The notes: a model not told the origin generated them from the letters alone. 64,000 bases of DNA from Bacteroidales bacterium (GCA_017544105.1 JAFYEU010000099.1:763-64762), one strand, 5' to 3'. Shown: positions 12,668 through 57,967, counted from the stretch's first letter. Numbers and translations are program-made.

Positions 12668-12748
12668 GCGGATGTGGCGTAATGGTAGCCGCGCCAGACT
12701 TAGGATCTGGTGGCGAGAGCCGTGGGGGTTCGAGTCCCCCCATCCGCA
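12668..12748 (+). tRNA. tRNA-Leu: tRNA-Leu (anticodon UAG), class II with long variable arm
   Basis: Acceptor stem gcggatg/catccgc. Anticodon stem ccaga/tctgg with loop ct-tag-ga. Variable arm tggcgagagccgtg. T arm ggggg-ttcgagt-ccccc. Discriminator is A and no CCA is encoded. Confidence 0.9.
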
Positions 12749-12773
12749 CTTCACGTTCCCATAATCCAACATA

Positions 12774-13190: not shown

Positions 13191-13241
13191 GCCTCAACCC
13201 TGCTGTGAAGAATCCTATTATAGGGATTCCTTGGAGGTTGC

Positions 13242-13676: not shown

Positions 13677-13823
13677 TTGCGTTCGTTTTTGAAAAAGAAT
13701 AAAGCCTATAGAGTGGCTGGAAAGGCGATAGTTTAAAGATACGTGAAATCATACAATTACTATGCCAACACCATGCATGAGGAGGTGAGTTTTTTCATTT
13801 TTGGTGCGTATCCGTAATTTATG

Positions 13824-13831
13824 TACCTTTG
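13824..13831 (+). promoter_or_regulatory. Bacteroidota -7 box (tacctttg) for the polysaccharide module
   Basis: TAnnTTTG match about 50 nt upstream of the flippase start. Confidence 0.5.
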
Positions 13832-13880
13832 CAGCGTTTTAAGATTTTGTCAGTGACAACGGATAGAAAGGGAAAAGACA

Positions 13881-15200
13881 TTGTTCAATAAGATCATCAA
13901 CACTTTCGGTACTAAGATAGCGGCGGCCATCCTCAACTTCGCGATTGCGGTGGTCATCTCGCAGATGCTGGGCGATGTGGGTAAGGGAGTGCAGTCTCTC
14001 ATGCTGACCACCATCTCCTTCATCCTGATCTTTGCGGAGATTGTCTGTGGCGAGAGTGTAGTCTTCTTGGCATCACGCCATCCCTTCTCCAAGATTTTTG
14101 TCCCGTCGGTGCTTTGGGCTCTTCTCATCTCCGTGGTGATGGGCTTCGGGGTGGCATTGTTCTCCCCAGGCGTCTCTCCTGATATGATCGCCCATATCGC
14201 GGTGCTCTCGTTCATCGCCTCTGCCAGCGCCATCAACTTCCGATTTCTGATTGGCAAGGAGGAGATCAAGAAGGCCAACTATAACACTTTGTTGCAGCCA
14301 GTTCTGATAGCGCTAACCGTCATCATCTACTATGTGGTGCTCAAGAAGAGCGACATCTATGGCTACGTGATAGGGCTCTACTTGGCTTACGGATGCTCTT
14401 TTTTGCTGGGAGTCTGGATGTTGCGAGATGAGTATAAGGCATTGCGTCTGTTTGCGCTGAAGGAATACAAGGCGGTACTCGCGGATCTCTTCAAGTATGG
14501 TTTCCTGAACCAGACGGGCCATTTTGTGCAGTTCTTCAACCTGCGTCTGAATTACTATCTGCTCTATGCCTACATGGACGAAGGCCGCGTGGGGGTCTAT
14601 TCCAATGCGGTCTCCTTGGCCGAGGCTATCTGGATCATCAGCAACAGTATCGCCTTGGTGCAGTACGCCCGGATTTCCAATGTGGATGACAGGGCTTATT
14701 CCCAAAGACTGACCTTGCAGCTGGGTAAGATATGCCTGTTGGTCTCTTCCTGCGCGGTGCTGGCACTGGCGCTGCTTCCTTCGGCATTCTATTGCTTTGT
14801 CTTTGGACCCGAGTTTGGAGAGATGTCAGGGCTGATACGCATCTTGGCTCCGGGGGTCTTGCTCTATTGCATCTTCTTGATCTTGGGGCACTACTACTCC
14901 GGCACGGGCCGCTATCAGATGAACACCTTCGCGGCTCTCTGTGGTCTGCTGATGACCTGCGTGCTGGGCTTCACGCTCATCCCGCGCTTTGATATCCGTG
15001 GGGCTGCCCTCACTGCCTCCGTGGCCTACTCGGTCAACGCGCTCTTCCTGCTCTTCATGTTTGTCAGAGAGTCCCGCTTCCGCTGCCGGGACTTCCTGCT
15101 GACCCGTCAGGAGTTGAAGGATTATCTGACAGAAGCGAAGAGACGCTTGGGCGCAGAAAAGAAAAAGGATTACGAACTACGGCAAGATGCCGAAAAATAA
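13881..15200 (+). CDS. Polysaccharide/oligosaccharide flippase (MOP/Wzx-like)
   Basis: 439 aa and polytopic, with a typical Wzx N-terminus (INTFGTKIAAAILNFAIAVVISQMLG). The start codon is TTG. Confidence 0.7.
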   Translation: MFNKIINTFGTKIAAAILNFAIAVVISQMLGDVGKGVQSLMLTTISFILIFAEIVCGESVVFLASRHPFSKIFVPSVLWALLISVVMGFGVALFSPGVSPDMIAHIAVLSFIASASAINFRFLIGKEEIKKANYNTLLQPVLIALTVIIYYVVLKKSDIYGYVIGLYLAYGCSFLLGVWMLRDEYKALRLFALKEYKAVLADLFKYGFLNQTGHFVQFFNLRLNYYLLYAYMDEGRVGVYSNAVSLAEAIWIISNSIALVQYARISNVDDRAYSQRLTLQLGKICLLVSSCAVLALALLPSAFYCFVFGPEFGEMSGLIRILAPGVLLYCIFLILGHYYSGTGRYQMNTFAALCGLLMTCVLGFTLIPRFDIRGAALTASVAYSVNALFLLFMFVRESRFRCRDFLLTRQELKDYLTEAKRRLGAEKKKDYELRQDAEK

Positions 15201-15206
15201 TAGCGT

Positions 15207-16025
15207 ATGAAATTATCATCCATAAAGAAAGGTTTTAAGGCGTTGGGGCTGGTCTGCCGGCATCCATATCTGCTGAATGCCGTCGTCAACGATGAGGGCG
15301 TGCGCCACGATGAGGTGGTGAAGCGATATGGGCTGCAGGACGGATTGCCCGTGGTGGAGATTCAGCAGTTGTTTCCAGACTTCTCCGAGAGGGTGTCCCC
15401 GTATGCCTATCTCTCCGGAGCGACCATGCCCATTGACCTGGCACTGCTTCGGATGCTGGCGCGGCGCCAAGGGGTGCGCGACTACTTCGAGATTGGCACG
15501 TGGCGCGGGGAAAGTGCCGCCAACATGGCCGCTGTGGCCGAACACTGCACCACCTTCAATCTGCCCAAAGAGAAGATCGTGGAACTGACCCATAACGAAC
15601 GCTACGCCGACCTCCATGGCTTCTTCTCCCAGAAGCTTCCGAATGTGACCCATCTTTATGGCGACTCGCAGACCTTTGATTTCACCCCCTATCACCAGGC
15701 TTTTGACATGGTCTTCATTGATGGGGACCATCATTACGAGGCAGTGAAGAGGGACACCGAGACCGCCTTTCAGCTGTTGCGCGATGATCATTCAGTGATT
15801 GTATGGCACGACTATGCGCTGGATCCTGAAACTGTCCGCTGGAACGTGCTGCTGGCTATTCTGGACGGCGCCCCCGCCGACAAGCGCAAAAATCTGTACC
15901 ATGTCTCCAACACGCTCTGTGCCGTCTATATCCCTGAAGATCTTCCGACGGGGCCGCTGACGCCATACGAGAAGCCTCAGAAATATTTTGAGGTGACCAT
16001 CGAATCGCATCCCTGCCAATCATAA
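15207..16025 (+). CDS. Class I SAM-dependent methyltransferase (Methyltransf_24/CmcI-like)
   Basis: SAM-binding loop FEIGTWRGESAANMA and the motif FIDGDHHYEAVKRD. Confidence 0.65.
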   Translation: MKLSSIKKGFKALGLVCRHPYLLNAVVNDEGVRHDEVVKRYGLQDGLPVVEIQQLFPDFSERVSPYAYLSGATMPIDLALLRMLARRQGVRDYFEIGTWRGESAANMAAVAEHCTTFNLPKEKIVELTHNERYADLHGFFSQKLPNVTHLYGDSQTFDFTPYHQAFDMVFIDGDHHYEAVKRDTETAFQLLRDDHSVIVWHDYALDPETVRWNVLLAILDGAPADKRKNLYHVSNTLCAVYIPEDLPTGPLTPYEKPQKYFEVTIESHPCQS

Positions 16026-16065
16026 CCAACCCAAGTCAAAGTTCAAATTATAGTTTTCTCTGCTC

Positions 16066-17223
16066 ATGAACATCCTGCATCTCTTAAGCTGGTTTCCAAC
16101 CCCTGACGATCCCACGCTGGGCAACTTCTGCATCCGCCAGATTGAGTCTTTGCCCGAGGAGTGCCATTCCGTCATTTTGTCGGTCTATGCCGACCCCAAG
16201 GCGGAGGAGACAAAGGTGGTGGAGATGAAGGCGGAGCGATACACCCATGTGCAGGTGCGTTTCCCGGCGCCTCGTTTTCCGATAGAGGCCGTGCGCAAGG
16301 GATGGCGCAAATGGCGTATTTACCGACTCTACCAACGCGGTCTGGACTATGTGCGTGAACACTATTTCGTTCCTGACCTCATCCATCTTCATGTGGCATA
16401 TCCTCTGGGCCGGATTGCGCTCCGCTGGCATCAGCGTTATCAGATTCCGTATCTGTTGACAGAGCATTGGACCATCTACCAGCCGCAAAACGATGCCCTG
16501 TTGCAAGGTCGTCTCCGAAGACGGGTGGTGCGTGTTGCCAATGCTGCAGGGGCTATCCTGCCGGTGAGCGACGACCTGCGCCGTAATATGGAGCGGGTGG
16601 GGGTGCACAATCAGTTCCAGGTTATCTACAATGTGGTGGACACTAGCCGATTTGTCTCCGCTTCTCCTTCCAGAACGGATGGCAAGAAGAGACTTCTCCA
16701 TATCTCCACCCTGCGTGACGAGGCCAAGAACTTCTCTGGCTTGCTGCGCGTGATGGAACGGATGAAGGAGGTGCGCCAGGATTTTGAACTCCATGTCATC
16801 CACGACTATCCTGCCCCTGTTTTTGAAGAATTTGTGCGCCAGCATGGCCTTTCCGACTATGTCATCTTCCATGGTCGTCAGACATCCGAGGGGGTGGCCC
16901 GCTTCTTTACGCAAAGCGACCTCTTTGTGATGTTTTCCAATTTTGAAAATCTCCCCTGTGTCATTGTGGAGTCGTTTGCCTCGGGAGTGCCGGTGCTTTC
17001 CACGGATGTGGGAGGCATAGCCGAAATCGTCAGTTCCGAGCGCGGCATGCTGGTCCATGCAGGTGATGAGGATGCCCTCCTGAGCCGACTGCTATATCTG
17101 TTGGATCATCTGGATGAATACGATACCGCAGCCATCCGGCAATATGCCGTTGACACCTTCAGTAAAGAGGAAATAGGAGGCCAGATATACCGGCAGTATC
17201 AAAAACTATTGAAAGTACTCTAG
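16066..17223 (+). CDS. Glycosyltransferase family 4
   Basis: GT-B fold C-terminal E-x7-E region (ENLPCVIVESFASGVPVLSTDVGGIAEIV). Length is 385 aa. Confidence 0.85.
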   Translation: MNILHLLSWFPTPDDPTLGNFCIRQIESLPEECHSVILSVYADPKAEETKVVEMKAERYTHVQVRFPAPRFPIEAVRKGWRKWRIYRLYQRGLDYVREHYFVPDLIHLHVAYPLGRIALRWHQRYQIPYLLTEHWTIYQPQNDALLQGRLRRRVVRVANAAGAILPVSDDLRRNMERVGVHNQFQVIYNVVDTSRFVSASPSRTDGKKRLLHISTLRDEAKNFSGLLRVMERMKEVRQDFELHVIHDYPAPVFEEFVRQHGLSDYVIFHGRQTSEGVARFFTQSDLFVMFSNFENLPCVIVESFASGVPVLSTDVGGIAEIVSSERGMLVHAGDEDALLSRLLYLLDHLDEYDTAAIRQYAVDTFSKEEIGGQIYRQYQKLLKVL

Positions 17224-17676
17224 TGAGATCCCAAAGTCGCTGATGCCTTTCACTTCGTCTTCCCGCATCCCTTGGGTGATGGAGAAGGTGTAAGTGCCGT
17301 TAAAGGGGAAACGGACTTTCGGTTGGAAGAGGAATTTGTTGTCCTTGATGCGGCCTTGTCCTTTGCCAGTCCATTTGCCGTAGGGGTTACAGAGGATGAA
17401 GCCCAGCGTGTCCTGCTCGGAATGGCCGTCAGGGTAGGTGGTGCGCATGAAGACGTAGAAGTTCTGTGTCTCAAAGTCGGTGGTGTTCCGAAGGTGTATG
17501 TACATGTTATAGTACTGCATGGAGTCTTCGATGTTCACCGTGAAGGAGAGGGGCTGGTCGATGGCCCATTTCTCACCAGGGATGGACTGTATGTCACTGT
17601 AGAAGACATTGCGCTGGCAGCCGACCATGAGAAGTAGAAAGCACAGCAGGGATAATATAAGATGGTTGATTCTCAT
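17206..17676 (-). CDS. gldH: Gliding-motility-associated lipoprotein GldH
   Basis: Lipobox LLMVGC, followed by the GldH signature stretch (IPGEKW...YNMYIHLRNT..F...N.YVF..T..PDG...D.L...L..P.GKW.GKG). It lies downstream of a PSP1 gene, as is typical in Bacteroidota. Confidence 0.8.
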   Translation of the reverse strand: MRINHLILSLLCFLLLMVGCQRNVFYSDIQSIPGEKWAIDQPLSFTVNIEDSMQYYNMYIHLRNTTDFETQNFYVFMRTTYPDGHSEQDTLGFILCNPYGKWTGKGQGRIKDNKFLFQPKVRFPFNGTYTFSITQGMREDEVKGISDFGISLEYFQ

Positions 17677-17680
17677 TGTG

Positions 17681-19108
17681 TTATGCGTCTGTAAGGCGTT
17701 TAAGCTCGTCCGCGTTGTAGTTGTTGCCTTCGTCGAACTTCTTCTGGTTCACAATGGCAAAGTCTTCCAACTTTTCCGGGATATTGCCTTTTTCGTTCAT
17801 CTCGATAATCTGTTTCACCTTGTCCAAGGGGATGGCGAAGATGTTGGAGGAGTCGTTGGCGTAGGTGTACCAGACAATCTTTTTGAAGATGTCGATCTTG
17901 TTATAGATGCCTTTGCCTTTTTTGGTCTTGAGTTGGACATTCGAAGAGGGGAAGTCACTCAGCTCTTTCTTGTAGGTCTCCTGTTCGAAGTTGAGGCAGC
18001 ATTTGAGTTTGCCGCACATGCCGGCGAGTTTCTGGGGGTTGAGCGAGAGCTGCTGGGTGCGGGCGGTGTAGGTGGAGACAGACTGGAAGTTGGAAAGCCA
18101 GGAGGAGCAGCAGAGCTCGCGGCCGCAGGAGCCGAGTCCGCCCAGACGGGCAGCCTCCTGACGAACGCCGATCTGGCGCATCTCGATGCGGATGTGGAAG
18201 TGCTCTGCCAAAATCTTGATCAGCTCACGGAAGTCCACCCGTTCTTCAGCGGAGTAGTAGAAGATGGCCTTGGTGCCATCTCCTTGATATTCCACATCGT
18301 TGACCTTCATTTTCAAATCCAGATCCCAAGCGGTATATCTGGACGACAGCATGGTGTCGTGCTCTTTCTGGACGGTGGCAATCCACTCTTCAATGTCTGC
18401 GTAACGGGCCAGCCGATATAGCTTCTTCGTCACGTCGGCAGGGTTGATGTGCTTGTGTTCCAGTTGGCGCTTGACTTGCAAACCCAGCATGGAAATGATG
18501 CCGATGTCGTGGCCGGTGTTGGCCTCGACAGCTACGATGTCCCCGACTTTGAAGACATGGTCGGGAGGAAGGAGGAAGAAGTCCTTGTGGCTGTTTTTGA
18601 AGCGCACCTCAGCGATGGGGAATTCCAGATAATCCAAGGAGATGTCGAGTTTTTCTATCCAGTCGTGGGAGGGCAGCTTGCAAGCGTTGTAGTTGTATTG
18701 ACGGCAGTAAGAAGACTCCGGATCCGGCAGGTCGCTCAGACCCCGGGTGAGGAAGATGTTGCTGGAGATCTTTTGAGACTCGGTGGACATGCCCGTGCGG
18801 ACGTCCATATCCAGATATTTCTCCCAGTCCTCTTCAGGGTTCTGGTAGGTGTCTTCAGCATCGACGACCTTGCCCGGCTTTTTGCTCTTGTAGGTCCTGG
18901 CGATCTGATCTGCTTCTTCGTTGTCGATTTCTTCTTCAGTGGCTTCTTCAACTGCAGTGGGTACCTCCTCGTCTTGGAGGCGGGGCGCTTCAGATGCCGG
19001 CTCTTTTACGGGAGCGGTGTCTTGTGCGGCGTCGGGCTGTGCAGGCTTGTTTTGGCCGTTCTGATTGTTATGGTTGTGACGATATCTTTTCTTGTTGTTA
19101 TTATTCAT
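17681..19108 (-). CDS. PSP1 C-terminal domain protein (RicT/YaaT-like)
   Basis: Cys-rich PSP1 motif GSCGRELCCSSWLSNF...CGKLKCCLNFE, preceded by a low-complexity acidic N-terminal region. Confidence 0.8.
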   Translation of the reverse strand: MNNNNKKRYRHNHNNQNGQNKPAQPDAAQDTAPVKEPASEAPRLQDEEVPTAVEEATEEEIDNEEADQIARTYKSKKPGKVVDAEDTYQNPEEDWEKYLDMDVRTGMSTESQKISSNIFLTRGLSDLPDPESSYCRQYNYNACKLPSHDWIEKLDISLDYLEFPIAEVRFKNSHKDFFLLPPDHVFKVGDIVAVEANTGHDIGIISMLGLQVKRQLEHKHINPADVTKKLYRLARYADIEEWIATVQKEHDTMLSSRYTAWDLDLKMKVNDVEYQGDGTKAIFYYSAEERVDFRELIKILAEHFHIRIEMRQIGVRQEAARLGGLGSCGRELCCSSWLSNFQSVSTYTARTQQLSLNPQKLAGMCGKLKCCLNFEQETYKKELSDFPSSNVQLKTKKGKGIYNKIDIFKKIVWYTYANDSSNIFAIPLDKVKQIIEMNEKGNIPEKLEDFAIVNQKKFDEGNNYNADELKRLTDA

Positions 19109-19131
19109 TCAAAAGGTTCTTTTTCGGGCTG

Positions 19132-19139
19132 CAAAAGTA
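19132..19139 (-). promoter_or_regulatory. Bacteroidota -7 box (tacttttg) for PSP1-gldH
   Basis: The reverse complement of caaaagta is tacttttg, located 24 nt upstream of the ATG at 19108. Confidence 0.55.
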
Positions 19140-19239
19140 CAAAAATATTGTGAGATGGGGCTGCCTCGCTGCCGGGAAATTTTACCTTCATACTGTCTGG
19201 CACTAAAGAGTCCCTGTTTTGGATTCCGGGCGGGTCGTT

Positions 19240-21165
19240 TTACCATCTCCAAGAGGTCTGAACCCTCAGCTCTGTCTTGTGCGGTTTGTCGATCTGGTTA
19301 AGCCCGCTGCTGATGGTGGTGCGGTCCAGATAATAGGTCTGCCCAACCCGAATCCAGCAGGAGAAGGCTTTGTACTGCAGCCGTACGACCAGATACCCCC
19401 GTATTCCTTTGTAGTAGTAGGAGCCGATGTTGAAGGCGTAGTAGACGTCGTCCTCGTAAGCATATAGCCGTTCCTCATAGCGCTGGGTGTCGAAATAGGC
19501 GATGCGGCCGTGGAAAGCCAGGCGCTCTTTCCAGCATTTGTAGCCGAAATCCTGATAGAGTAGCAGCCCGGAAAAGTGTTCGAGGGGCTGGCTGTAGACG
19601 TTGATTTTCCAAACCAAGCCCGACTTGCAAGTGAGTCCTTGGAGGGGCTGGTATTGCCATTGAAAACGCAGCCGGTGCAGATGCTGTCCCCGGACCCGCT
19701 TGTAGGGTAGGTCTTCGATGTTGATGGGTTTGTCGCGATATTGGTATCCTAATGCCCAGTGGCTGTTCCGGGATAGGGAACAGGTGAGAGTGGCGCCGGC
19801 ATCCAGGATGCTGGCGGGCGCGTCCAGCCGGTAAGAAGGATCATGCAGCTGGTAGTAGTCGAAGTAGTTTTTGAGTTCCAGTCTTCTGGTGAGGATGTGC
19901 TGAAGGCTGATGTAGACACCGCTTTCGCTGTGGTTTTGGCTGTTGGCGCCGAGTGCATTGCCCAGGGGTGCCTCATAGTCAGGGCTGTAGTGCCGCAGGA
20001 GAACCGCCAGCTGGGTGATGGCGGAGAGGGGTGCGACGAATCCCTGCAGCAAGGCCGGTTTTCCTCGCGAGGTGATGGCCACTTCGCCGAAGAGGAGGAT
20101 CTTGCGGATGGTCGTCTGGTAGTCGATACCCGCCGTGAGACTGCGGAAGGAGAGGGGAGGGTGGCCGGGCGGCCGCGGGGTGAGGGTGTCCCGAAGGAGC
20201 AGGCAGGCCACGCGGCCGCCCAAACGGAAGTGCCGATGGGTGTAGGCCACGTTGGCCCCCGTGACATGTTGCGTTGTCCCAAAGCGATTTCCCCAGAACA
20301 ACGTTCCTTGCAGCGAGGTGCTCCCCAAGGTGGCCGCCGCTCCCCGCAGAAAGTCCCCCTCGTTGGTGGGCGCGATGGCTCGGATGCCCGTGCTGAAGCG
20401 TCGCAACTGGCTGATGTCCCCACCACGGCCCGACAGCATCGCACTGCCTAGCACCAACCCCTGTCCGTAGTTGAGCCGATAGTCGCCCACCACCGCCTGC
20501 CGGAGCAAGCCCATGTTCTTGAGGGAGAGACTGCCACTGTAGAAGTCGAAGCCATAACGTTGCGCGCCCCGGAAAAACTGCTCTCCCGCATCCTTCTCTC
20601 CGGAGATCTTGAGGGATAGCTTGTCTTGCGATTCGAAAGTGTACCGGAAGCACAGATGGTCTCGCGAGCCTGGATAGAGGGTGCTGCGCGCGGGGTCATA
20701 GCCGGCCTGTCGCTCCAGCACCCAGCTGTCGCGCAACGTCAGGGTGCTCCGATGCTTTTTCCATAGATTCCGCCAGAACTCCTGCCTCGTCGGCACGGGC
20801 TCAGCCACCACCTTGTCTCTCAACCGCTGTACGTCCCGCTCACTGAAACCGGCTATAGCCGCCAATTCGTAAATGCTGACCAGCGGCCCCGTCTCTTCCA
20901 GGTATAATTGCAGCTGATAGTATTGATAGTCTGATAACTGCAAACGCTGTGTCGCTGCCTCGTAAGATAGCGCGTTGAGATTCATCTTGCCACCCTCATC
21001 CTCCAACAGCTCCAAGATCTCCTCGCTTGCAGCAGTCTCTTCCGTAGCCTCCCCGATAGTCTCCCAGCGCTGCTCCATCTGCTCCAAGAAGTAAAGACTG
21101 TCGGTCTGCCCGATGGCGGTCCCCATCATCAGGCATATCGCTATCGAGATGCTCTGTTTCTTCAT
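19240..21165 (-). CDS. Helix-hairpin-helix domain protein with predicted outer-membrane beta-barrel C-terminal region
   Basis: I placed the start at the internal MKKQSISIAICLMMGTAIG signal peptide (ATG 21165), not the ORF-track start. A ComEA-like HhH region is present (LVSIYELAAIAGFSERDVQRLRDKV). A long region of alternating beta-strands ends in ...ELRVQTSWRW, an aromatic terminus. Confidence 0.65.
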   Translation of the reverse strand: MKKQSISIAICLMMGTAIGQTDSLYFLEQMEQRWETIGEATEETAASEEILELLEDEGGKMNLNALSYEAATQRLQLSDYQYYQLQLYLEETGPLVSIYELAAIAGFSERDVQRLRDKVVAEPVPTRQEFWRNLWKKHRSTLTLRDSWVLERQAGYDPARSTLYPGSRDHLCFRYTFESQDKLSLKISGEKDAGEQFFRGAQRYGFDFYSGSLSLKNMGLLRQAVVGDYRLNYGQGLVLGSAMLSGRGGDISQLRRFSTGIRAIAPTNEGDFLRGAAATLGSTSLQGTLFWGNRFGTTQHVTGANVAYTHRHFRLGGRVACLLLRDTLTPRPPGHPPLSFRSLTAGIDYQTTIRKILLFGEVAITSRGKPALLQGFVAPLSAITQLAVLLRHYSPDYEAPLGNALGANSQNHSESGVYISLQHILTRRLELKNYFDYYQLHDPSYRLDAPASILDAGATLTCSLSRNSHWALGYQYRDKPINIEDLPYKRVRGQHLHRLRFQWQYQPLQGLTCKSGLVWKINVYSQPLEHFSGLLLYQDFGYKCWKERLAFHGRIAYFDTQRYEERLYAYEDDVYYAFNIGSYYYKGIRGYLVVRLQYKAFSCWIRVGQTYYLDRTTISSGLNQIDKPHKTELRVQTSWRW

Positions 21166-37121: not shown

Positions 37122-37685
37122 TTAGTGGCTTAAGATGGTTTTATAGCGCATGTCGCCGGTGAGGACTGCGTTGATGGGGATGCCTAGGACGGTGGTGGAG
37201 GCACTGCCGCTTGCGATGCTGGTCCATTCCATAATGCCGTCTACCGGTGGTTGGATGGTGGGATGGGACATGCTGACGCTGACACCGAAGTTGATGGGAT
37301 AGTTCCCGATGGTGGTGTCAATGACCATATTGACCGTGTCGTTTTCAAGATGGAGACCGTCAATGTCAACAATACCGTGCAGATAAAGAGCGTCGTTGTT
37401 GCTGATGATCACGCCGTTTTCGACAGCAGGGTCGGATTTCACGGTGACCATTTCAACATCAAGGTCTTTGTCGAGCGGGAAGGAAAACATGCCGAGCACA
37501 TTGATGGAGAGCTCGGTGTGGCGGCTCATCAGGTATTTGCCCAGATAGGGTGTGATGTCAATGGAGGTTTCGTCGGGGTTGTTGTTACCGTTGCCGCCGT
37601 TGCCGCCAGGATTGTCGGGGCCTTGTTCGCAGCCGCACATCAAAAGGGCTACAAGAGTCATGAGGGTGAAGATAGTCTTTTTCAT
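37122..37685 (-). CDS. Hypothetical lipoprotein with Gly/Asn linker
   Basis: Lipobox LLMCGC followed by NPGGNGGNGNNNP. No recognisable family. Confidence 0.55.
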   Translation of the reverse strand: MKKTIFTLMTLVALLMCGCEQGPDNPGGNGGNGNNNPDETSIDITPYLGKYLMSRHTELSINVLGMFSFPLDKDLDVEMVTVKSDPAVENGVIISNNDALYLHGIVDIDGLHLENDTVNMVIDTTIGNYPINFGVSVSMSHPTIQPPVDGIMEWTSIASGSASTTVLGIPINAVLTGDMRYKTILSH

Positions 37686-37787: not shown

Positions 37788-37795
37788 CAAAATTA
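37788..37795 (-). promoter_or_regulatory. Bacteroidota -7 box (taattttg) for the envelope operon
   Basis: The reverse complement of caaaatta is taattttg, about 100 nt upstream of the ATG at 37685. Confidence 0.45.
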
Positions 37796-37974: not shown

Positions 37975-38171
37975 GGGAGTAAGTGCAGTTAGGAGTTGTC
38001 AGTTTTCAGTTTGGAGTTAGCAGTTAATGGGGATGGCGGGGGCGTAGTGTGTATGGCGCAGGCCGTAGGTCTGCAGGTTTTGGTAGCCAAGGAGCCGCAC
38101 GGGCCCAATCGCACGCCGGAGGTGTGCGGGCGGTATGTCGGGGCGGGGTGTGCATTGCGGGGGCAAATGTA
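37975..38171. repeat. Left inverted-repeat element (IR-L): heptamer tract + unit + 78-bp GC core + unit + outward-facing -7 box
   Basis: The heptamers agttagg agttgtc agttttc agtttgg agttagc agttaat occupy ~37988-38029. The core at 38061-38138 is the reverse complement of 42858-42935 (74/78 by eye). Nt 38008-38061 are the reverse complement of 41093-41146 (53/54). caaatgta at 38164-38171 gives tacatttg on the minus strand. Confidence 0.85.
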
Positions 38172-38376
38172 GGAATTTTCAGAGACAATAGATTGCTTTA
38201 GATATTATTTTTAGAATTTTCCACGTTGAACTTATAGTTTTAATAAATAAGATGAAAAAATGATGGAAGAATCTTGAATGTACTTGTGTTGATTTTTCCT
38301 TTTAAAAAGGTAATGATATAGATGTTGACCAAAAAAAGACAAATAAGACCGGCATGATGCTCTCTACAATCATACG

Positions 38377-38429
38377 GTGGCACTTCCGTGCCACGAGGCG
38401 CCAATTCCCCTTCTGATTCTCAGAAGGGG
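38377..38429. other. Two adjacent perfect hairpins in a small GC-rich islet
   Basis: Hairpin 1: gtggcac-ttcc-gtgccac (38377-38394). Hairpin 2: ccccttctga-ttc-tcagaagggg (38407-38429). Confidence 0.8.
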
Positions 38430-38582
38430 TGCCCAAAGGGCGGGGTAGTTAATATGGATTATAATTTCTTAATTTTCATGAAAGCTGCGGAGGATATTTC
38501 CTTGTTTCCGCTAGTGTGGGTAATGGCCATATTTCTCTGCTAAGGTATTCATATTTTTTATGTTACTGAACCGACTTTTTTC

Positions 38583-38590
38583 TATCTTTG
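38583..38590 (+). promoter_or_regulatory. Bacteroidota -7 box (tatctttg) inside the island
   Basis: TAnnTTTG match about 160 nt upstream of the lipoprotein gene at 38751. Confidence 0.45.
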
Positions 38591-38750
38591 CACCCGATAA
38601 AAGTGCTACACTTTTTAGTGACCAAATTAGTAAAGTTTTTAATGATTATATACAGCATATAGAGCAATGGAATTACACGGTATCTCAACGACAGCAACGC
38701 CTAGGGGATCTCTACACAGATAAACGTGTCAAACACAAAATGCATCACGA

Positions 38751-39299
38751 ATGAATAAGAGACTATCAATATTGCTGTTTTTAATCTGTCTTTGTGGCTG
38801 CAACCGGATTCCGGACAATCAAAGCATGCTTCTCACACTAACGCATGGGGAATACACTGTAGTGTTAAAGTCTGTGATTGAAAAAAACAATTATGATATT
38901 ATATGGAAAGAGTATGGTTTTTCGTATCCATATATTCTTTCTCAAGAATTGATTTTTTATCATAACGGGAAGCCTCTTAAGAGGCATGTCATACCTGTCC
39001 CTAAACGCCAATTTGTGATTAATAGCAGAAAAGTTCATTTTCTAAAAACACCAATATTTGACATCGAACTGTTGCAGGGAGCAGATAATCTGTATGTGCA
39101 TTTATATGGTGCAAATTATTGTTGTGGTATTTCTTGTCCAGAATTCAATGGCCTATATCTGCTTGACGGAACGATTATTTCAGAATGCATATCCGTTATG
39201 GGTCAACCACTTAATGGGAAGAATATTGACGAAATAGGGGTTGATATCAATAACCCCATAAAACGAAAATCTATGTACACAATATTTAAGCCGCTATAA
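38751..39299 (+). CDS. Hypothetical lipoprotein (candidate orphan immunity protein)
   Basis: Lipobox LICLCGC, AT-rich, and the first gene of the toxin/immunity island. No cognate toxin lies upstream. Confidence 0.5.
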   Translation: MNKRLSILLFLICLCGCNRIPDNQSMLLTLTHGEYTVVLKSVIEKNNYDIIWKEYGFSYPYILSQELIFYHNGKPLKRHVIPVPKRQFVINSRKVHFLKTPIFDIELLQGADNLYVHLYGANYCCGISCPEFNGLYLLDGTIISECISVMGQPLNGKNIDEIGVDINNPIKRKSMYTIFKPL

Positions 39300-39382
39300 A
39301 AACATCTTTGTCTAAGTTAGTTCTTTTTTCGTACTTTCGCTCCATTTAAGATATTTTTCGTACTTGTCACTCCGACAAATAA

Positions 39383-39635
39383 TAATGGCCACTTACCAGT
39401 CATATTATCCTCCTCTCTTCCCCGCGCGAAGCCTTCTCTCCTGCGCCAAACACGCCACATCCGCTCCACCACCCTCAACTGCTCACTGTTCACTGCTCAC
39501 TGTTCACTGGATTTACACCTTCTCCGCCCAAGAACGCGACTCCGAGACGGGATTAAGCTACTTCGGCTCACGGTATTATAGCAGCGACTTGAGCATCTGG
39601 CTCAGCGTGGACCCGATGAGTGACAAATATGCAAG
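39383..39635 (+). repeat. Cassette-head direct repeat, copy 1
   Basis: Homologous to 41031-41297. It carries a conserved ATG, a Pro/Ser-rich GC segment (cccgcgcgaagcc..ctcctgcgccaaacac...), a heptamer tract (actgctc actgttc actgctc actgttc) and then the rhs core coding sequence up to gacaaatatgcaag. Confidence 0.8.
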
Positions 39636-40254
39636 CACTTCTTCATACGCATATTGTAGGAATCAACCCATAATTTTGGTAGATCCTAATGGCAAATTTG
39701 ACACGCGTGCTGAAGCAAGGCAATATCGAAAAGAGCATCATACTGGAGGAAAAATCCACAAGCGATCTGAGAAAGATACTTTTTCGGGTAATTATTTAAT
39801 AGATAACAAAAGAACACGAACGAGTTATACAAAACCGAAAAATCACGATGAATCCGATAGTCCAACTATAGGACTAGACAACGTAGGGGTGGTTTCTTCG
39901 CCAATGATTCTTTACAAACAATCAAATTCCAAAGCAAATAATATACTGTCTTCAGACGCCACTACTTGTCTGCTAATTACATCTGACGATTGGACTGGTT
40001 TTGGAATTGCAGATGATGTTGCAATACCGATAATATTATCAACAGCAATAATCACGGCAGGTGTGATAAAGTTACAGGATTTCATATTAATGTCACAACA
40101 TGGTGTGAACAATGATAAACTCACTACTGATGAAAGAAAGATCCTTGAAGAAAAGGAACGTAATAATACTATCTCGCCTACTGAAAAACAAAAACTGAAA
40201 AAAGACAGAAAAAACAGAGGATTAATACATTCTAGACAAAGTAAGGACAAATAA
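39385..40254 (+). CDS. Orphan RHS-core C-terminal fragment fused to an unclassified toxin-like C-terminal domain
   Basis: The RHS repeat-associated core tail reads YTFSAQERDSETGLSYFGSRYYSSDLSIWLSVDPMSDKYASTSSYAYCRNQPIILVDPNG. A unique ~190-aa tail follows, with one hydrophobic helix (VAIPIILSTAIITAGVI) and a Lys-rich end. I placed the start at ATG 39385, which is conserved with cassette 2. No YD-repeat shell is present. Confidence 0.6.
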   Translation: MATYQSYYPPLFPARSLLSCAKHATSAPPPSTAHCSLLTVHWIYTFSAQERDSETGLSYFGSRYYSSDLSIWLSVDPMSDKYASTSSYAYCRNQPIILVDPNGKFDTRAEARQYRKEHHTGGKIHKRSEKDTFSGNYLIDNKRTRTSYTKPKNHDESDSPTIGLDNVGVVSSPMILYKQSNSKANNILSSDATTCLLITSDDWTGFGIADDVAIPIILSTAIITAGVIKLQDFILMSQHGVNNDKLTTDERKILEEKERNNTISPTEKQKLKKDRKNRGLIHSRQSKDK

Positions 40255-40271
40255 AACAATATATCGATCTC

Positions 40272-40913
40272 ATGAAAAAAAAACAAGAGTCAAATCTTCT
40301 AACTTCTAAAGAACGTATAGCAAACAATAAAGGTGTTTCAAATAAGAAACTAGTGTCCCTTTTGCATAAGATGTCTTATGCTGACTTGGGTGATTATTTA
40401 TTGACAAATAAACAATTTTCAAAGGATAACATTGTTATAATAAAACAATTTATTATAGAACATTTGGACAATCCAAATAGGCTTTTTGTTTCAGATTTAA
40501 TAGATTTTTCTATTATTTACAACATTGAATTGCCTTATAAAAAATGTATTGATTTCCTAAATAAATATGGTGGTGACGATGATTATGTTCAAATGTCATC
40601 CATAGATTACCTTTTTTACAACCTAAAGTGTTCCTTTTTTCCAATAATTATTGAAAGAATGATTCAAATTACAAGCAATCCCAAATCCCATGTAGCTTCT
40701 AGAATACGTTCCGCATTCTTTTTGTATCGACATACTCATCGTGAAAGATTTTTATTGGATTTAGTATCCTTTGTTAAAAGAGATTCCTATTATGAGGATC
40801 TTCTAATGAATTTATTGTCAGTTGAGTATAATTCTATCGAATTTTTCCCTGATTCAAAACGTATTCTTGAACTTATTGGTAGAAAATACCAAATTCAATA
40901 TCATCAACAATGA
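40272..40913 (+). CDS. Candidate cognate immunity protein (cytoplasmic, alpha-helical)
   Basis: Lies 17 nt after the toxin ORF, is AT-rich and has no signal peptide. The call rests on position only. Confidence 0.45.
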   Translation: MKKKQESNLLTSKERIANNKGVSNKKLVSLLHKMSYADLGDYLLTNKQFSKDNIVIIKQFIIEHLDNPNRLFVSDLIDFSIIYNIELPYKKCIDFLNKYGGDDDYVQMSSIDYLFYNLKCSFFPIIIERMIQITSNPKSHVASRIRSAFFLYRHTHRERFLLDLVSFVKRDSYYEDLLMNLLSVEYNSIEFFPDSKRILELIGRKYQIQYHQQ

Positions 40914-40940
40914 ACAACTAGCGCTCTCAGAGTATAATAG

Positions 40941-41917
40941 CCTAGACGTAATAATTATTTTAATACCTTTCTCTTCGACACCCAATCCTATATCTTCAAG
41001 ATGGAGTACGAATACGACTCATACAACCGCATAACAATGAACCCTCACCCACCATATCCCTCCTCTCCCTCCCCCGCGCGAAGCCTCCCTTCCTGCGCCA
41101 AACACACTACGCCCCCGCCATCCCCATTAACTGCTAACTCCAAACTTCTAACTCCTAACTGGTTTTACACCTTCTCCGCCAAAGAAAAGGACGTTGAAAC
41201 CGGCCTAAGCTACTTTGGCTCACGCTATTACAGCTCCGATCTGAGCATCTGGCTGAGCGTGGACCCGATGAGTGACAAATATGCAAGTTTATCGCCCTAT
41301 AATTATTGCGCCAATAACCCGGTGAAGTTGGTGGACCCGAATGGGGAAGAGTGGGAAACTCCTGAAGATGCTAACTATGCACAACATCCATTTCCATAGC
41401 TCAAACGCGACAAAAACAGTATGACCCATCGAGCAGGGAGTATAAACTTTTGCAAGAAGGAATTGATGGATTGATTTCTATGGGTAAGGAAAAGGGGCAG
41501 AAATATACTTTTAACAAGTCATTGCTGGCAACTGGCAATGTGTCCAGACAAGAAAGCGGGACAATAAGTATTAACTACATTGAAGATAATAGTAATGAGT
41601 ATTTGAAAGATGGATCTGCATGGCATGAAGCGTTTCATCTATCTCGTAGAAATGCTTGGAAGACACTGTCCTGCAACGAAAGACGCAATGCCGCTACACA
41701 ATACTGGGGGTTTGATGAGAATGGTTTCTTGTTTAGCGACAACAATTGTGATGAAGAGTATATGGCATATCGGTCCCAGATGGCATTTTCTCCACAAAGT
41801 ATGCCACACCTCCCACTAGGGCAAGTTGACAACAATGAAAGTATTCAATTGTATGTCGCTTCTAAATACAAGAAAGAATGCTGTGACCACAAGTTTCGAC
41901 TTCCATCTATAAAATGA
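40941..41917 (+). pseudogene. Orphan RHS-core fragment + HExxH metallopeptidase-like toxin domain, interrupted by a frameshift
   Basis: YD-repeat end EYEYDSYNRIT, then the core tail FYTFSAKEKDVETGLSYFGSRYYSSDLSIWLSVDPMSDKYASLSPYNYCANNPVKLVDPNGEEW. The frame stops at 41397-41399. Another frame is open from 41375 and continues as ...ISIAQTRQKQYDPSSREYKLLQEGIDGL...SAWHEAFHLSRRNAW... to 41917. Confidence 0.65.
41031..41297 (+). repeat. Cassette-head direct repeat, copy 2
   Basis: Homologous to 39383-39635. Its heptamer tract is ttaactg ctaactc caaactt ctaactc ctaactg. Nt 41093-41146 are the reverse complement of 38008-38061 (53/54). Confidence 0.8.
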
Positions 41918-41927
41918 AGAATAAAAA

Positions 41928-42746
41928 ATGATAAAGAGATTTCTACTGTTTGGGCTATTGACATTCCTATGCATAAATACATTCTCCCAACAAGATAGCG
42001 TGATATTCAAAAGTTTGGGGTCATACTATGTATTCTATGCAGATGGAACATATAAATTGTTTAATATTCCGTGTGACATATGCCCTCCGTATGCTGACAA
42101 CAACAATTTGATCAGTTTTGGGACATATATACCTTTTAAGAAGAAGGCATATTATCTTTATTCTGACAGTACGCTATCCAATGAGGTTAATGTAGTTGTG
42201 TCTGAAAGAACTGATAATAGCCCTAATCTGACTGTTAATATTTCCATGCCGGCTCAAAAAGACAGTTCGAACATGCTTCGGCCCCACTATTTTTACGCTC
42301 TGAGTGTAGATTACAAAAAGATTGACCAAGCTACTGCTGTTGACACGATGACATGGTTTGTTAAAGATTATTATCAGAGCAGTCCTCAGTTTGTACTTCC
42401 AAAAGATTCAAATCTCGCCCCATTGGGTTTTACCATAAGAATCTATCCTAAATCAAAGGTCTCTAGAAGGGCATATGCAGAAGCCAATTATGCTATAAAG
42501 GACAATACAGCCAATGTTTTTGACCTCTCTATTCCACAATTTGTCACAGGCTATCTTGATTATGAACTAATGTATAATTATAGGTTAGACCTATATGGCA
42601 AGAAAATAATAGGTGATCCTTCAACACAGACAGTATATGTGAGAGAGGACATATATAACAAACGAAATTATAGTGATTGGTATTTTCCTGTTCGTCCATC
42701 GTGGGAATACTGGACATTTCCCATATTACAATTGAATCATAAATAG
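41928..42746 (+). CDS. Secreted hypothetical protein (candidate immunity to the metallopeptidase-like toxin)
   Basis: Signal peptide MIKRFLLFGLLTFLCINTFSQQ. It starts 10 nt after the toxin ORF end and is AT-rich. Confidence 0.45.
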   Translation: MIKRFLLFGLLTFLCINTFSQQDSVIFKSLGSYYVFYADGTYKLFNIPCDICPPYADNNNLISFGTYIPFKKKAYYLYSDSTLSNEVNVVVSERTDNSPNLTVNISMPAQKDSSNMLRPHYFYALSVDYKKIDQATAVDTMTWFVKDYYQSSPQFVLPKDSNLAPLGFTIRIYPKSKVSRRAYAEANYAIKDNTANVFDLSIPQFVTGYLDYELMYNYRLDLYGKKIIGDPSTQTVYVREDIYNKRNYSDWYFPVRPSWEYWTFPILQLNHK

Positions 42747-42799
42747 TAAAATATGATAACAATATCCTATTCGACATCCTCTTCGAGACAAAAACATCT

Positions 42800-42962
42800 T
42801 TCCGCGCGAAGACTTACCTTTTGCGCCAACCGCGCTACACCCCTGCCATACGTAGATACATCCCGCCCGCACACCTACGGCGTGCGATTGGGCCCGTGCG
42901 GCTCCTTGGCTACCAATACCTGCAGACCCACGGCCTGCAATATGCGCGCCACACCATCACCC
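42800..42962. repeat. Right inverted-repeat element (IR-R): cassette-head-like segment + unit + 78-bp GC core + unit
   Basis: tccgcgcgaagacttaccttttgcgccaacc... resembles the heads of cassettes 1 and 2. The core at 42858-42935 is the reverse complement of 38061-38138. The element abuts the HMA gene stop at 42965. Confidence 0.85.
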
Positions 42963-42964
42963 TT

Positions 42965-43318
42965 TCAGTGCCTTTCTTCCATCCTGCAACAGGCGGGGAG
43001 CTTGGCACGCACCTTGGGGTCCGCGGGCACTTCGTCGGCGTTGTATCCTAACTTGCTGATCTGCTTGCGCAACTTGTCGGGGTTGGTCTTTCTCCATTGA
43101 TAGCTGATGAAGAGCTTGGAGGTCTGCATGTCGTATTGGCAGTCGGTCACCCCCTTAAAGTAAGGTACATTGGCCATGAATCGGTCGGCGCACTGCTTGC
43201 ATACTCCGTTGGTCTGGATAGTGATGGTGTCAATACCCATTTCGTGTAAACCGCAACTTTGAGCATGGACCATGCAGGTTGCCAGGATGATAAGGCAGGT
43301 GATGAAGATTTTTCTCAT
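42965..43318 (-). CDS. Heavy-metal-associated (HMA)-like domain protein, secreted
   Basis: Signal peptide plus a CxxC metal-binding context (TIQTNGVCKQCADRF). It sits downstream of a TonB-dependent receptor. Confidence 0.65.
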   Translation of the reverse strand: MRKIFITCLIILATCMVHAQSCGLHEMGIDTITIQTNGVCKQCADRFMANVPYFKGVTDCQYDMQTSKLFISYQWRKTNPDKLRKQISKLGYNADEVPADPKVRAKLPACCRMEERH

Positions 43319-57818: not shown

Positions 57819-57967
57819 AAGGCTACATAAAAAAAGGGCAAGCTACTTATATCGCATCGCTACAACCAATGTACCCTTGCTACATTCCTGTCCTGGGGGA
57901 GTTAAAAGGGAGCAGATCGTACAAGACTTACCCGACCGCAAAAATATAAAAAATATCGAATGGTTGA

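Follow-up and report, generated by a model that had tools for sequence, protein, structure and literature searches.

An AT-rich cassette island enclosed by inverted repeats lies in a rumen Bacteroidales genome, within a 64,000-nt stretch of DNA (GCA_017544105.1 JAFYEU010000099.1:763-64762; hereafter the window), and raises the question of how such an island is built and rearranged at a site that has neither a recombinase nor a full-length rhs gene. The explanation considered probable is that the island, a satellite array with no recombinase of its own, consists of Rhs C-terminal toxin/immunity cassettes, rearranged via their repeated leaders and heads, presumably by general recombination. In this family, which appears to be used by rumen and gut Bacteroidales, a cassette would begin with a Bacteroidota -7-like box followed by an ATG; next would come a leader that is GC-rich and of low complexity yet apparently translated, a head corresponding to the final ~60 rhs core codons (self-cleavage plug included), an AT-rich domain for the toxin and, lastly, the immunity gene. 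Head-to-tail stacks of such cassettes follow full-length rhs genes and also lie beside a divergent tyrosine recombinase. In the window, two of them read toward the HMA gene after an orphan immunity lipoprotein gene, with the array closed at each side by a putative truncated leader that points outward (Table 1).

Table 1. Features of the island and its flanks, in window positions
Feature	Position	Strand	Remark
187-aa lipoprotein gene, left flank	37122-37685	-	First gene of FMN_bind/DUF4230 operon
TAATTTTG box of this gene	37788-37795		
Left arm: predicted decayed, truncated cassette leader	37976-38171	-	Reads toward the 187-aa lipoprotein gene
Left-arm low-complexity tail	37976-38032		
Left-arm A'	38033-38061		
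Left-arm hairpin motif t	38058-38074		
Left-arm hairpin motif H1	38111-38127		
Left-arm ATG	38153-38155		Now out of frame
Left-arm -7 box	38164-38171	-	TACATTTG, read from 38171 to 38164
First unit, without toxin	38172-39378	+	AT-rich spacer, box, 64-aa ORF, lipoprotein gene
Cassette-type promoter box, first unit	38583-38590		TATCTTTG
Lipoprotein (immunity-type) gene, first unit	38751-39299		
Cassette 1	39379-41030	+	TIGR03696, E=2.3e-16; PDB Rhs/Tc plug match
Cassette 1 leader ATG	39385		
Cassette 1 module A	39422-39469		
Cassette 1 Rhs head start	39514		
Cassette 1 toxin ORF end	40254		
Cassette 1 candidate immunity gene	40272-40913		
Cassette 2	41031-42752	+	YD-repeat remnant, leader, Rhs head, frameshifted toxin, immunity gene
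Cassette 2 leader ATG	41001		
Cassette 2 module A	41074-41121		
Cassette 2 Rhs head start	41166		
Cassette 2 immunity gene	41928-42746		With signal peptide
Right arm: predicted leader of truncated third cassette	42753-42964	+	Adjacent to the HMA gene at its 3' end
Right-arm ATG	42753		
Right-arm module A	42802-42849		
Right-arm H1	42869-42885		
Right-arm t	42922-42938		
Right-arm A', degenerate	42935-42962		
Segment missing from empty alleles	38062-42920		
HMA-domain gene, right flank	42965-43318	-	

Orphan Rhs cassettes of the island

The GC content is 0.26-0.40 within the island versus 0.50-0.58 in the flanks, which bears out the AT-rich interior described in an earlier note on this DNA. That the island consists of orphan Rhs toxin/immunity cassettes, as was also proposed there, is supported by profile and structure matches: both cassettes match the Rhs-associated core domain TIGR03696 above the cut-off (the second with E=1.8e-16) as well as the C-terminal plug of YenC2 (623-689) and TccC3 in PDB, and both heads carry DPNG, which conforms to the DPxG cleavage motif. 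At the start of each cassette, then, stands the Rhs core C-terminus (RHS repeat-associated core domain plus DPxG). The toxin and immunity ORFs of the window match no family; their architecture fits a toxin followed by an immunity gene, and toxin 2 contains HExxH. Sister cassettes encode Toxin-JAB1 and Peptidase_M91 domains, with MORN_2 or lipoprotein signals in the neighboring genes. Of 196 cassettes, 183 have an intact orphan toxin ORF.

A frameshift has made cassette 2 a pseudogene in two pieces, 41001-41399 (stop at 41399) and 41450-41917 (the HExxH remainder); the same cassette in L021 has an intact 292-aa HExxH toxin ORF, and cassette 2 is 89% identical to the second cassette of a recombinase-associated array in L241. 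Both of the orphan cassettes counted originally are present, one of them frameshifted, and are joined by a truncated third in the right arm and by another truncated one, on the opposite strand, in the left arm. The gene described as a lipoprotein is present too, but is amended to an immunity-type gene; a gene 93% identical to it sits inside an eight-cassette array (L031). The statement that the window contains no recombinase and no full-length rhs gene holds: tblastn of the window with the array recombinase described below gave nothing below E=1, the genes up to 10 kb from the island belong to housekeeping Pfam families only, with no recombinase among them, and the 2198-aa ORF at 14-6610 encodes a surface protein of the T9SS type.

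Arrays of orphan rhs-CT/rhsI (toxin-immunity) cassettes were reportedly described by Jackson in 2009, Poole in 2011 and Koskiniemi in 2014. Such arrays belong to polymorphic toxin loci (Zhang et al. 2012, PMC3482391). The island has in common with them the stacking of toxin-immunity pairs that include the rhs core 3' end, the variability of the toxin, a homologous head through which exchange with a full gene is possible, AT-richness relative to the core, and variability between strains. Unlike them, it is downstream of no rhs gene and is closed by leader remnants that apparently face outward. A promoter-like box, a start codon and a putatively translated GC-rich leader with parts conserved at the nucleotide level belong to each cassette, arrays can be divergent, and in related genomes they adjoin a tyrosine recombinase. 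A location downstream of a full-length rhs gene that shares the head, which the 64-kb window lacks, is found in related loci (L062, L071 and L090); the full-length genes (at least 3000 aa) that precede orphan cassettes have no leader themselves.

Arms and the leader module

A repeat search of the window recovered two inverted pairs, I1 (38041-38138 / 42858-42955; 98 nt, 88% complementary) and I2 (37994-38062 / 41092-41160; 69 nt, 90%), which correspond to the pairs claimed previously at 38061-38138 / 42858-42935, now wider, and at 38008-38061 / 41093-41146. The two arms have in common an identical core of 36 nt, which has no other copy in the 64 kb and was matched in 0 of 100 shuffles. The pair is real, but what had been taken for a two-copy repeat is a modular one (A, H1...t, A' and a low-complexity tail) with four related copies. 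Each arm is the predicted 5' leader of a truncated cassette reading outward, and the arms look like a 98-nt inverted repeat because two such leaders share the 74-nt H1...t module; in L007 the left-arm leader is found intact and in frame.

This sharply bounded module, the core of the arms, is made of two 17-nt hairpin motifs, H1 and t, and ~60 copies of it in genomes and metagenomes lie on the sense strand shortly upstream of Rhs C-terminal cassettes. In ~25 GTDB loci it is always on the strand of the Rhs head, 60-240 nt upstream of it. In metagenomes, H1 is upstream of t in 29 copies and, given enough sequence, a Rhs head nearly always follows 80-170 nt downstream of t, the exception being the L210 copy at 12740, which has no Rhs head despite ample downstream sequence. 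The leader is evidently translated: it keeps the frame of the Rhs head in all 21 copies, over 12 different spacer lengths and with no in-frame stop (off-frame readings contain stops in 23 of 42), and 20 of the 21 have an in-frame Met upstream. Identity between copies is 99% for t and 94% for H1, third codon positions included, versus 70% for the 38 nt between them and 31-38% for the flanks; both motifs are conserved at synonymous sites and are read in different frames. This hints at a constraint beyond plain coding or homologous recombination, and may point to a dedicated nucleic-acid site.

One possible, if doubtful, reading, which is compatible with the satellite array, is that H1...t is a REP-like or regulatory hairpin (RNA stabiliser, attenuator or LytTR regulator site) and that the inverted layout is incidental. 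The two small invariant hairpins with a variable spacer would fit it, as would a related 'GGGCTACCnnnCCC+t' element that accompanies other REP-like hairpins at five intergenic, non-Rhs sites, and a different conserved hairpin in other leaders, seen in that of L062. However, nearly all informative copies of the full module belong to Rhs leaders, where it keeps the reading frame and is translated, and it matches no Rfam family.

Allelic variation at the site

Comparison of assembled contigs from different samples and strains marks the site, which has the HMA gene on one side and the 187-aa lipoprotein gene on the other, as a hot spot with empty, one-cassette, two-cassette and divergent-array alleles. 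The empty allele (L005, L006, L233, L234 and L235) keeps a single t between two outward-facing leader remnants, and its junction is a 7-8-nt microhomology, TGCAG(A/G)CC. A MORN gene with an intact cassette 2 is found in L021, L223 and L228; cassette 1 is missing from L022-24 and L230, with the junction inside a 300-nt head repeat; and the arrays of L224 and L203 read toward the left flank. The eight-cassette array of L031, on a contig of 64,873 nt, is probably at this locus, because the longest contig recorded for the HMA variant P0017 has the same length. In L033 a cassette denoted b extends to the right flank; in L203 and L224 it is inverted and extends to the left flank (90-94% identity). 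The island is therefore not fixed across related strains, and the proposal of a recombining array gains support from empty, short, long and divergent alleles at one site.

The junctions are scattered over the 3' edge of t, a point 17 nt beyond t (the L203/L224 inversion) and the interior of heads, which favors general recombination between repeats. The breakpoints 38061/62, 41092/93 and 42920/21 coincide with the 3' edge of t, and 13 of ~38 contigs end inside an arm.

The presence/absence polymorphism with a sharp junction, the inverted arms and a TGCA microhomology readable as a target duplication could also be expected of a non-autonomous mobile element, a 4.9-kb unit with long terminal inverted repeats and a transposase elsewhere, as suggested in the earlier note. 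This is highly improbable: the 74-nt arm module stands in direct orientation ahead of array cassettes in dozens of genomes, the outer arm parts (A', A'w) are kept in the empty allele and in a species only 80% identical, the interior varies between strains while the arms stay put, and the island was seen at no other genomic site. A transposon or MITE was rejected on the first two of these grounds.

Equally remote is a phase-variable inverton, in which a flip between 38008-38061 and 41093-41146, or between the arms, would move the left-arm -7 box and turn on cassette 2. The inverted pairs are real, the box is where it had been placed and is of the Bacteroidota type, and inversion across arms exists between strains. 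Nevertheless, a comparable box precedes many leader start codons, so that cassettes need no inversion to acquire a promoter: TAnnTTTG is found upstream of the leader start in exact form in 21 of 92 and in relaxed form in 47 of 92, and the background, counted for the exact form only, is 73 of 1950 windows. Moreover, the left-arm box belongs to a decayed leader with an out-of-frame ATG, cassette 2 is a pseudogene in the window, and neither the predicted 38062-41092 inversion nor an inverted copy of any of the window's own segments was found among ~20 contigs crossing an arm, the inversion of another cassette being seen between different samples only.

A tyrosine recombinase at related loci

A conserved 374-aa tyrosine recombinase (PF00589, E=1e-22) lies beside the main rhs operon in related genomes, ~300 nt from the first cassette and divergent from it, with a conserved intergenic region between the two. 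A targeted search located it at 13 loci, a count that takes in two metagenome fragments as well as copies that are truncated. Complete copies are those of L089, L097, L099 and L155; those of L063 and L083 extend past the end of the locus, and L048, L056, L072, L101 and L046 have truncated ones. In L240-243 it is flanked by the array on one side and by the main rhs operon (3060 aa) on the other. A family-count scan of 291 neighboring ORFs gave no recurrent recombinase family.

Since homologous cassettes occur in arrays beside this enzyme, its action in trans is conceivable. In an integron- or shufflon-like scheme, the recombinase at the main rhs locus would act on H1/t or a nearby sequence, and would insert, excise and invert cassettes, also at a recombinase-less site. 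Beyond the position of the recombinase and the recurrence of cassette 2 in an array associated with it, this scheme draws on the ultraconserved, sharp-edged hairpins, which have a compensatory C:G/G:C swap between H1 and t and fold better on the antisense strand (z = -2.0 to -2.3), on the empty allele, which equals excision between two quasi-palindromic t copies, and on the contigs that end inside an arm. It is nonetheless unlikely, as only ~11% of cassette leaders carry H1...t, the junctions include those beyond t and in heads, the invariant stems provide no covariation, no t-like site was found in the recombinase-proximal region, relatives at 41% identity are ordinary prophage-type integrases, and in many arrays the enzyme is truncated or absent.

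Integrons combine an intI gene divergent from attI with cassettes that have folded attC sites. The related loci are similar in the divergent tyrosine recombinase adjoining the first cassette, in arrays with promoter-proximal cassettes and in the imperfect hairpin motifs at the boundaries of part of the cassettes. The cassettes considered here differ in having their own promoters and start codons, their hairpins form part of a translated leader, and junctions fall at more than one site; the likeness lies in architecture and hairpin conservation. Shufflons and Bacteroidales multiple-inversion systems are represented by Rci/sfx and by the hsdS and susC/D shufflons. Inverted repeats within the coding 5' regions of alternative C-terminal segments, inversion between strains and a tyrosine recombinase nearby in related loci recall these systems; in contrast to them, the window has no constant N-terminal gene, inversion is documented between strains only, and the repeats are 100-300 nt long and divergent rather than short identical sites.

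The rAID-1 loci (recombinase-associated acquired interbacterial defence, or polyimmunity loci) consist of a 5' XerD-like recombinase followed by at least two co-directional genes with GC of at most 41%, the immunity genes being uninterrupted by toxin cassettes (Ross et al. 2019, 10.1101/471110; PMC12247911; Zhang 2012). Common features are the occurrence in Bacteroidales, low-GC arrays of short genes, conserved inter-gene motifs, strain variability, a tyrosine recombinase associated with related loci and, as a probable role, immunity to the toxins of neighbors. However, rAID-1 membership fails on the defining 5' co-directional recombinase, which is missing from the window and, in related loci, is transcribed away from the array, next to the main rhs operon. 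The genes are co-directional and low in GC, but immunity genes and toxin ORFs with Rhs heads follow one another in turn.

Mode of rearrangement and biological role

General recombination, homology-driven or by slippage, with an enzymology that we infer, is the favored mode, and help from a trans-acting recombinase is possible. The substrates would be the repeated leaders and the 180-300-nt heads. Strain comparison shows events of three kinds: cassettes lost or gained through recombination between direct heads, cassettes flipped through exchange between inverted leaders, and, in some strains, absence of the whole interior, the junction being a short microhomology in the quasi-palindromic t.

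Several observations count against general recombination. Deletion between inverted repeats is impossible by simple homologous exchange; furthermore, breakpoints fall at the 3' edge of t, H1/t is ultraconserved, and a recombinase is linked to related arrays.

The presence of the same cassettes beside a dedicated-looking tyrosine recombinase in relatives makes cassette exchange testable, and an inversion involving the head of an array and that of the main rhs gene would exchange their toxin tips. According to one report (PMC7043789), a Salmonella orphan Rhs toxin without the conserved delivery part forms with its antidote a type II toxin-antitoxin module inside the producer. The cassettes described here resemble it in their self-contained expression signals, predicted from the sequence, and because they carry these signals they could also act as toxin-antitoxin-like modules. 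Most likely, the island would provide immunity to the Rhs toxins of neighbors together with a reserve of toxin tips.

Structure of the island and its surroundings

The window comes from a ruminant-gut MAG (a 65.8-kb contig, proteins MBR63340xx), and housekeeping genes lie in the 10 kb on either side of the island, the AT-rich stretch between an HMA gene and the gene of a 187-aa lipoprotein. The features that the earlier note had read from the sequence were recovered computationally. A repeat finder returned both inverted pairs, one joining the two arms (I1) and the other joining the left arm to the head of cassette 2 (I2), and the identical 36-nt core of the arms has no other copy in the 64 kb and was matched by none of the shuffles. 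The GC content is 0.26-0.40 between the arms vs 0.50-0.58 outside, and the -7-type box in the left arm lies on the minus strand, as had been claimed. The ORFs are as described, and the heads of both orphan rhs C-terminal cassettes match TIGR03696 (RHS repeat-associated core domain) over the cut-off (E ~2e-16) and align with the YenC2/TccC3 cocoon over its final ~60 residues, directly before the cleavage site. Among the island ORFs of the window, NCBIfam recognised the Rhs head alone; Pfam gave no match for the toxin, immunity or lipoprotein ORFs, Rfam no family within the island at gathering thresholds or at E<=1, and an exact-sequence look-up no record of the lipoprotein. The 64 kb were also confirmed to contain neither a recombinase nor an rhs gene. 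The giant ORF at the window start is a T9SS-sorted surface protein and not an Rhs protein.

On alignment, the repeat proved to be modular, with four related copies. Module A occurs in direct orientation in both cassette heads and the right arm, and the further core beyond it is confined, among the four copies, to the two arms. On the cassette sense strand each arm runs from a start region through module A, or a weak copy of it, to the core, which module A' and then a low-complexity tail follow. The ATG of the right arm directly follows the stop codon of the 272-aa immunity gene of cassette 2; the right arm is thus the beginning of another, third cassette, which the HMA gene truncates with its 3' end. 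The left arm carries the same leader type on the opposite strand, ends after the low-complexity tail and has its ATG out of frame; in one related locus (L007) the left-arm leader is intact and in frame. The toxin of cassette 2 is frameshifted in the window and forms a single 292-aa HExxH ORF in L021, other alleles carry a different lesion in it, and its immunity gene is intact in every allele.

Features of the window, of the hairpin module and of related loci (L-numbers)
Feature	Locus	Position	Strand	Remark
Giant surface-protein ORF	window	14-6610	+	at least 2198 aa; continues past window start; T9SS-type C-terminal sorting tail
tRNA-Leu	window	12668-12749	+	
187-aa lipoprotein gene	window	37122-37685	-	
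Left arm	window	37976-38171	-	truncated leader
Inverted pair I1	window	38041-38138 / 42858-42955		98 nt, 88% complementary
Inverted pair I2	window	37994-38062 / 41092-41160		69 nt, 90%
-7-type box TACATTTG	window	38171->38164	-	in left arm
Cassette-type promoter box TATCTTTGCACC	window	38583-38590	+	upstream of 64-aa ORF (38560-38754) and lipoprotein gene
Promoter-like stretch, tandemly duplicated	window	39318-39384		ttttcgtactttcgctcc / ttttcgtacttgtcactcc; just 5' of cassette 1 start codon
Module A	window	39422; 41074; 42802		cassette 1 head; cassette 2 head; right arm
Toxin 2 frameshift	window	41399-41450		
Toxin 2 deletion	L022-24, L026, L230	41457-41769 (window numbering)		313 nt
Right arm	window	42753-42964	+	truncated leader
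HMA gene	window	42965-43318	-	
Small SRP RNA, Bacteroidales	window	57832-57940	-	Rfam RF04183, 94.8 bits
H1				mean pairwise identity 0.94
Spacer between H1 and t				mean pairwise identity 0.70
t				mean pairwise identity 0.99
Flanks of H1...t				mean pairwise identity 0.31-0.38
Empty allele	L005, L006, L233-235			HMA gene adjoins 187-aa gene; single t between outward-facing remnants
One-cassette allele	L021/L223, L228-229			left arm, MORN-repeat gene (opposite strand), full leader and intact cassette 2, right arm
Window minus cassette 1	L022-24, L230			junction within 300-nt head repeat; toxin 2 deletion
Arrays reading toward left flank	L224, L203			
Eight-cassette array	L031			probably this locus, its contig being as long as one that bears the HMA gene
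Recombinase, full length	L089	7570-8691		
Recombinase, full length	L097	6924-8045		
Recombinase, full length	L099	2327-3442		
Recombinase, full length	L155	7194-8315		
Recombinase	L240	10001-11125		
Recombinase, running off locus edge	L063, L083			
Recombinase, truncated	L048, L056, L072, L101, L046			
Recombinase, fragments only	L132, L197			short metagenome contigs

The arms as copies of a cassette leader

When GTDB species-representative genomes were scanned with the head alignment, 72 loci were recovered, which belong to many Bacteroidales MAGs from the gut of ruminants and horses. The arm core is present in ~25 of these, always on the strand of the Rhs head and 60-240 nt upstream of it. 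Where the upstream flanks are long, rhs ORFs of at least 3000 aa have an immunity gene downstream, with orphan cassettes that bear the leader coming next; the full-length genes themselves lack the leader, and the homology starts at xYTFSAKEKD. Because the core in these loci always stands upstream of Rhs heads on the same strand and is missing from full-length genes, the arms are copies of the orphan-cassette leader and not as the ends of a mobile unit with long terminal inverted repeats, a suggestion of the earlier note that is therewith abandoned.

The leader is read as coding and a non-coding nature was rejected, since the frame is strictly kept: in all 21 leaders containing the core it is in frame with the head, over 12 distances (63-183 nt) and with no in-frame stop, the off-frame readings having stops in 23 of 42 cases. 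An upstream in-frame Met is found in 20 of the 21, usually as MxxxxTYxP. A -7-type box of the Bacteroidota kind, TAyyTTyGC, precedes leader start codons. Among 92 unique leader upstreams, 21 have the exact form TAnnTTTG, as do 73 of 1950 background windows, and 47 have a relaxed form (the background was counted for the exact form only). With these frequencies, the left-arm box is a recurrent, not universal, feature of leaders. The C-terminal ORF (at least 80 aa) is intact in 183 of 196 orphan cassettes (93%).

At the N-terminus of some full-length Rhs proteins (L089, L097, L072) a transmembrane helix comes first and then an RSYRTYS-like motif; that of L041 (223-) has the helix without the motif. 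This motif resembles the start of orphan leaders, MxxRTYRP, and the leaders might be derived from the 5' end of full rhs genes.

A hairpin module within the leader

The leaders of the cassettes look like mosaics assembled from GC-rich hairpin modules. The core shared by the arms is a sharp-edged 74-nt module, in which the 17-nt hairpin motifs H1 (GCACACCTACGGCGTGC) and t (GCAGACCTACGGCCTGC) enclose ~38 variable nt. Third codon positions within H1 and t are 93-100% conserved, and the two motifs represent one imperfect dyad, read in a different frame in each; a C:G pair in one is replaced by G:C in the other, a compensatory swap. Purely protein-level conservation was rejected, because synonymous sites are fixed and one DNA motif is read in different frames. 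RNAalifold predicted two 7-bp hairpins (H1 and t) and nothing else from 27 module copies, with invariant stems and hence no covariation in them; the antisense strand of the module folds better, and the module has no match in Rfam. A protein or recombinase site and an RNA element are both candidates for what the sequence conservation may reflect. Many leaders, such as that at L062 10015-10075, carry a second conserved module with an 11-bp perfect hairpin (TTCCGCCACAC...GTGTGGCGGAA), translated as PFRHTP...TAVWRN.

Metagenomes contain 29 copies with H1 upstream of t, and in nearly every copy with enough downstream sequence an Rhs head follows 80-170 nt downstream of t, the exception being the copy at 12740 in L210. 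Five copies consist of the 3' part only ('GGGCTACCnnnCCC' and the t hairpin; L114 ~8400-8470, L131, L122, L127, L158) and lie in non-Rhs intergenic regions, adjoining other REP-like hairpins (GGACGCGATGAATCGCGTCCCTACA). About 90 of the 126 metagenome matches of the 18-mer are chance occurrences in unrelated organisms, and a scan of viral contigs for t gave one match, also unrelated.

Alleles at the site and the mode of rearrangement

The flanking genes, looked up by exact protein sequence, led to ~40 contigs of this locus from metagenomes and MAGs, and the island varies from an empty site through one-, two- and inverted-cassette forms to, probably, an array of eight. A leader remnant already stands beside the HMA gene in a species only ~80% identical (L014), so the site is old. 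One cassette, b, comprising a head, a toxin, an immunity gene and a downstream core, adjoins the right flank in L033 and, inverted, the left flank in L203 and L224 (90-94% identity), which amounts to inversion across the arms between strains. Of ~38 public metagenome contigs of the locus, 13 end inside an arm (window 38091-37985 and 42867-42923), which suggests that several alleles coexist within single samples. The allele series and the inversion of cassette b thus uphold the claim of a recombining cassette array; its description as an inverton was not sustained, and none of the locus contigs compared carries an inverted copy of the window's own segments. Divergent arrays (<- <- / -> ->) with 180-390-nt inverted repeats between the heads are common in related MAGs (L048, L056, L078, L088), and a truncated recombinase gene lies at the centre of two of them (L048, L056).

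Breakpoints at the 3' edge of t (38061/62, 41092/93 and 42920/21), together with an empty allele that equals excision between two quasi-palindromic copies of t, suggest a specific site. However, the inversion junction of L203 and L224 lies 17 nt past t, where the homology of the arms ends, the loss of cassettes maps to their heads, and at the empty-allele junction stands a microhomology of 7-8 nt, TGCAG(A/G)CC, such as inverted-repeat-stimulated slippage would make, by analogy with the host-mediated precise excision of composite transposons. For these reasons general recombination among the repeats is favoured as the probable source of the junctions, with site-specific recombination as the less likely rival. 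An ultraconserved crossover site was also sought in the 180-nt head, which displays ordinary coding conservation only, with a peak of 0.93 at YTFSAKE.

A tyrosine recombinase linked to related arrays

Pfam family counts over 291 ORFs near arrays revealed no recurrent recombinase. Starting from a weak SAM-like match in L048, however, a tyrosine recombinase of 374 aa was found that is conserved (PF00589, E=1e-22; motif ...LAGHHSLAMTERYTH) and is encoded divergently ~300 nt from the first Rhs-CT cassette, with a conserved intergenic region between them. The family has 873 members at E<=1e-20; relatives at 41% identity, the genomic context of one of which was examined for kinship with the rAID arrays (for interbacterial defence that is acquired and associated with a recombinase), are ordinary prophage-type integrases. 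The recombinase-proximal intergenic region contains repeated TGGCGCA motifs, and the first cassette has a short leader, 'MNQRxT...AExxTFSAKEKD', and a box in other loci that the window's TATCTTTGCACC resembles. TGGCGCA as a recombinase site common to this region and the window junctions was dropped, since it occurs in 11 of 195 leaders only. A search of the island found no remnant of the recombinase or its upstream region.

The gene order in L240-243 (in L240 at 4541-21125) is EPSP synthase, cassette array, recombinase, LytTR/HTH regulator, two small genes (a 149-aa gene and a 519-aa DUF8202 gene) and a main rhs gene, the product of which, a SpvB/TcdB_midN/RHS protein of 3060 aa, ends in a Toxin-JAB1 tip; in L241 the array's second cassette shares 89% identity with cassette 2 of the window. 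Since array and main rhs gene stand in inverted orientation, head exchange would flip the core operon and at once swap the toxin tips. A rumen Bacteroidales 'Rhs integron/shufflon', in which an rhs-linked recombinase acting on the leader hairpins would capture, excise and invert cassettes in its own array and, in trans, at satellite sites like the island, with head inversions swapping the tip of the main Rhs protein, seems to us an unlikely account.

Discussion

By its architecture the island belongs with the orphan cassettes for Rhs toxins and immunity proteins (Zhang et al. 2012, PMC3482391), from which it differs in standing away from any rhs gene, in being bidirectional and in that its cassettes seem to have their own expression signals and a partly ultraconserved, putatively translated leader. 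A Salmonella orphan rhs element without the delivery part is reported to work as a toxin-antitoxin module (PMC7043789), and by analogy an in-cell role for self-contained cassettes is plausible. The likeness to rAID-1 (Ross et al. 2019) lies in habitat, low GC and array form. The definition of rAID-1, however, includes a 5' co-directional XerD-like recombinase and immunity genes free of toxin cassettes, whereas the island lacks such a recombinase and has toxin cassettes among its immunity genes, and the assignment to this kind of array was not retained. In gene layout the related loci come nearer to an integron.

Polymorphic toxins are generally held to diversify by homologous recombination with orphan cassettes that lie silent downstream. 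The organisation of this locus and its relatives is different: the cassettes have their own promoter box, start codon and apparently translated leader, 93% of the toxin ORFs are intact, and the cassettes form uni- or bidirectional arrays, which can lie far from any rhs gene and in many genomes are linked to the conserved tyrosine recombinase. Should this enzyme or the hairpin module be functional, it would explain how toxin and immunity genes are exchanged in the rumen microbiome and provide a handle for spotting such exchange in metagenomes. On the conservative reading too, the locus offers a clean natural allele series (empty, one, two, inverted and eight cassettes) for studies of arsenal turnover.
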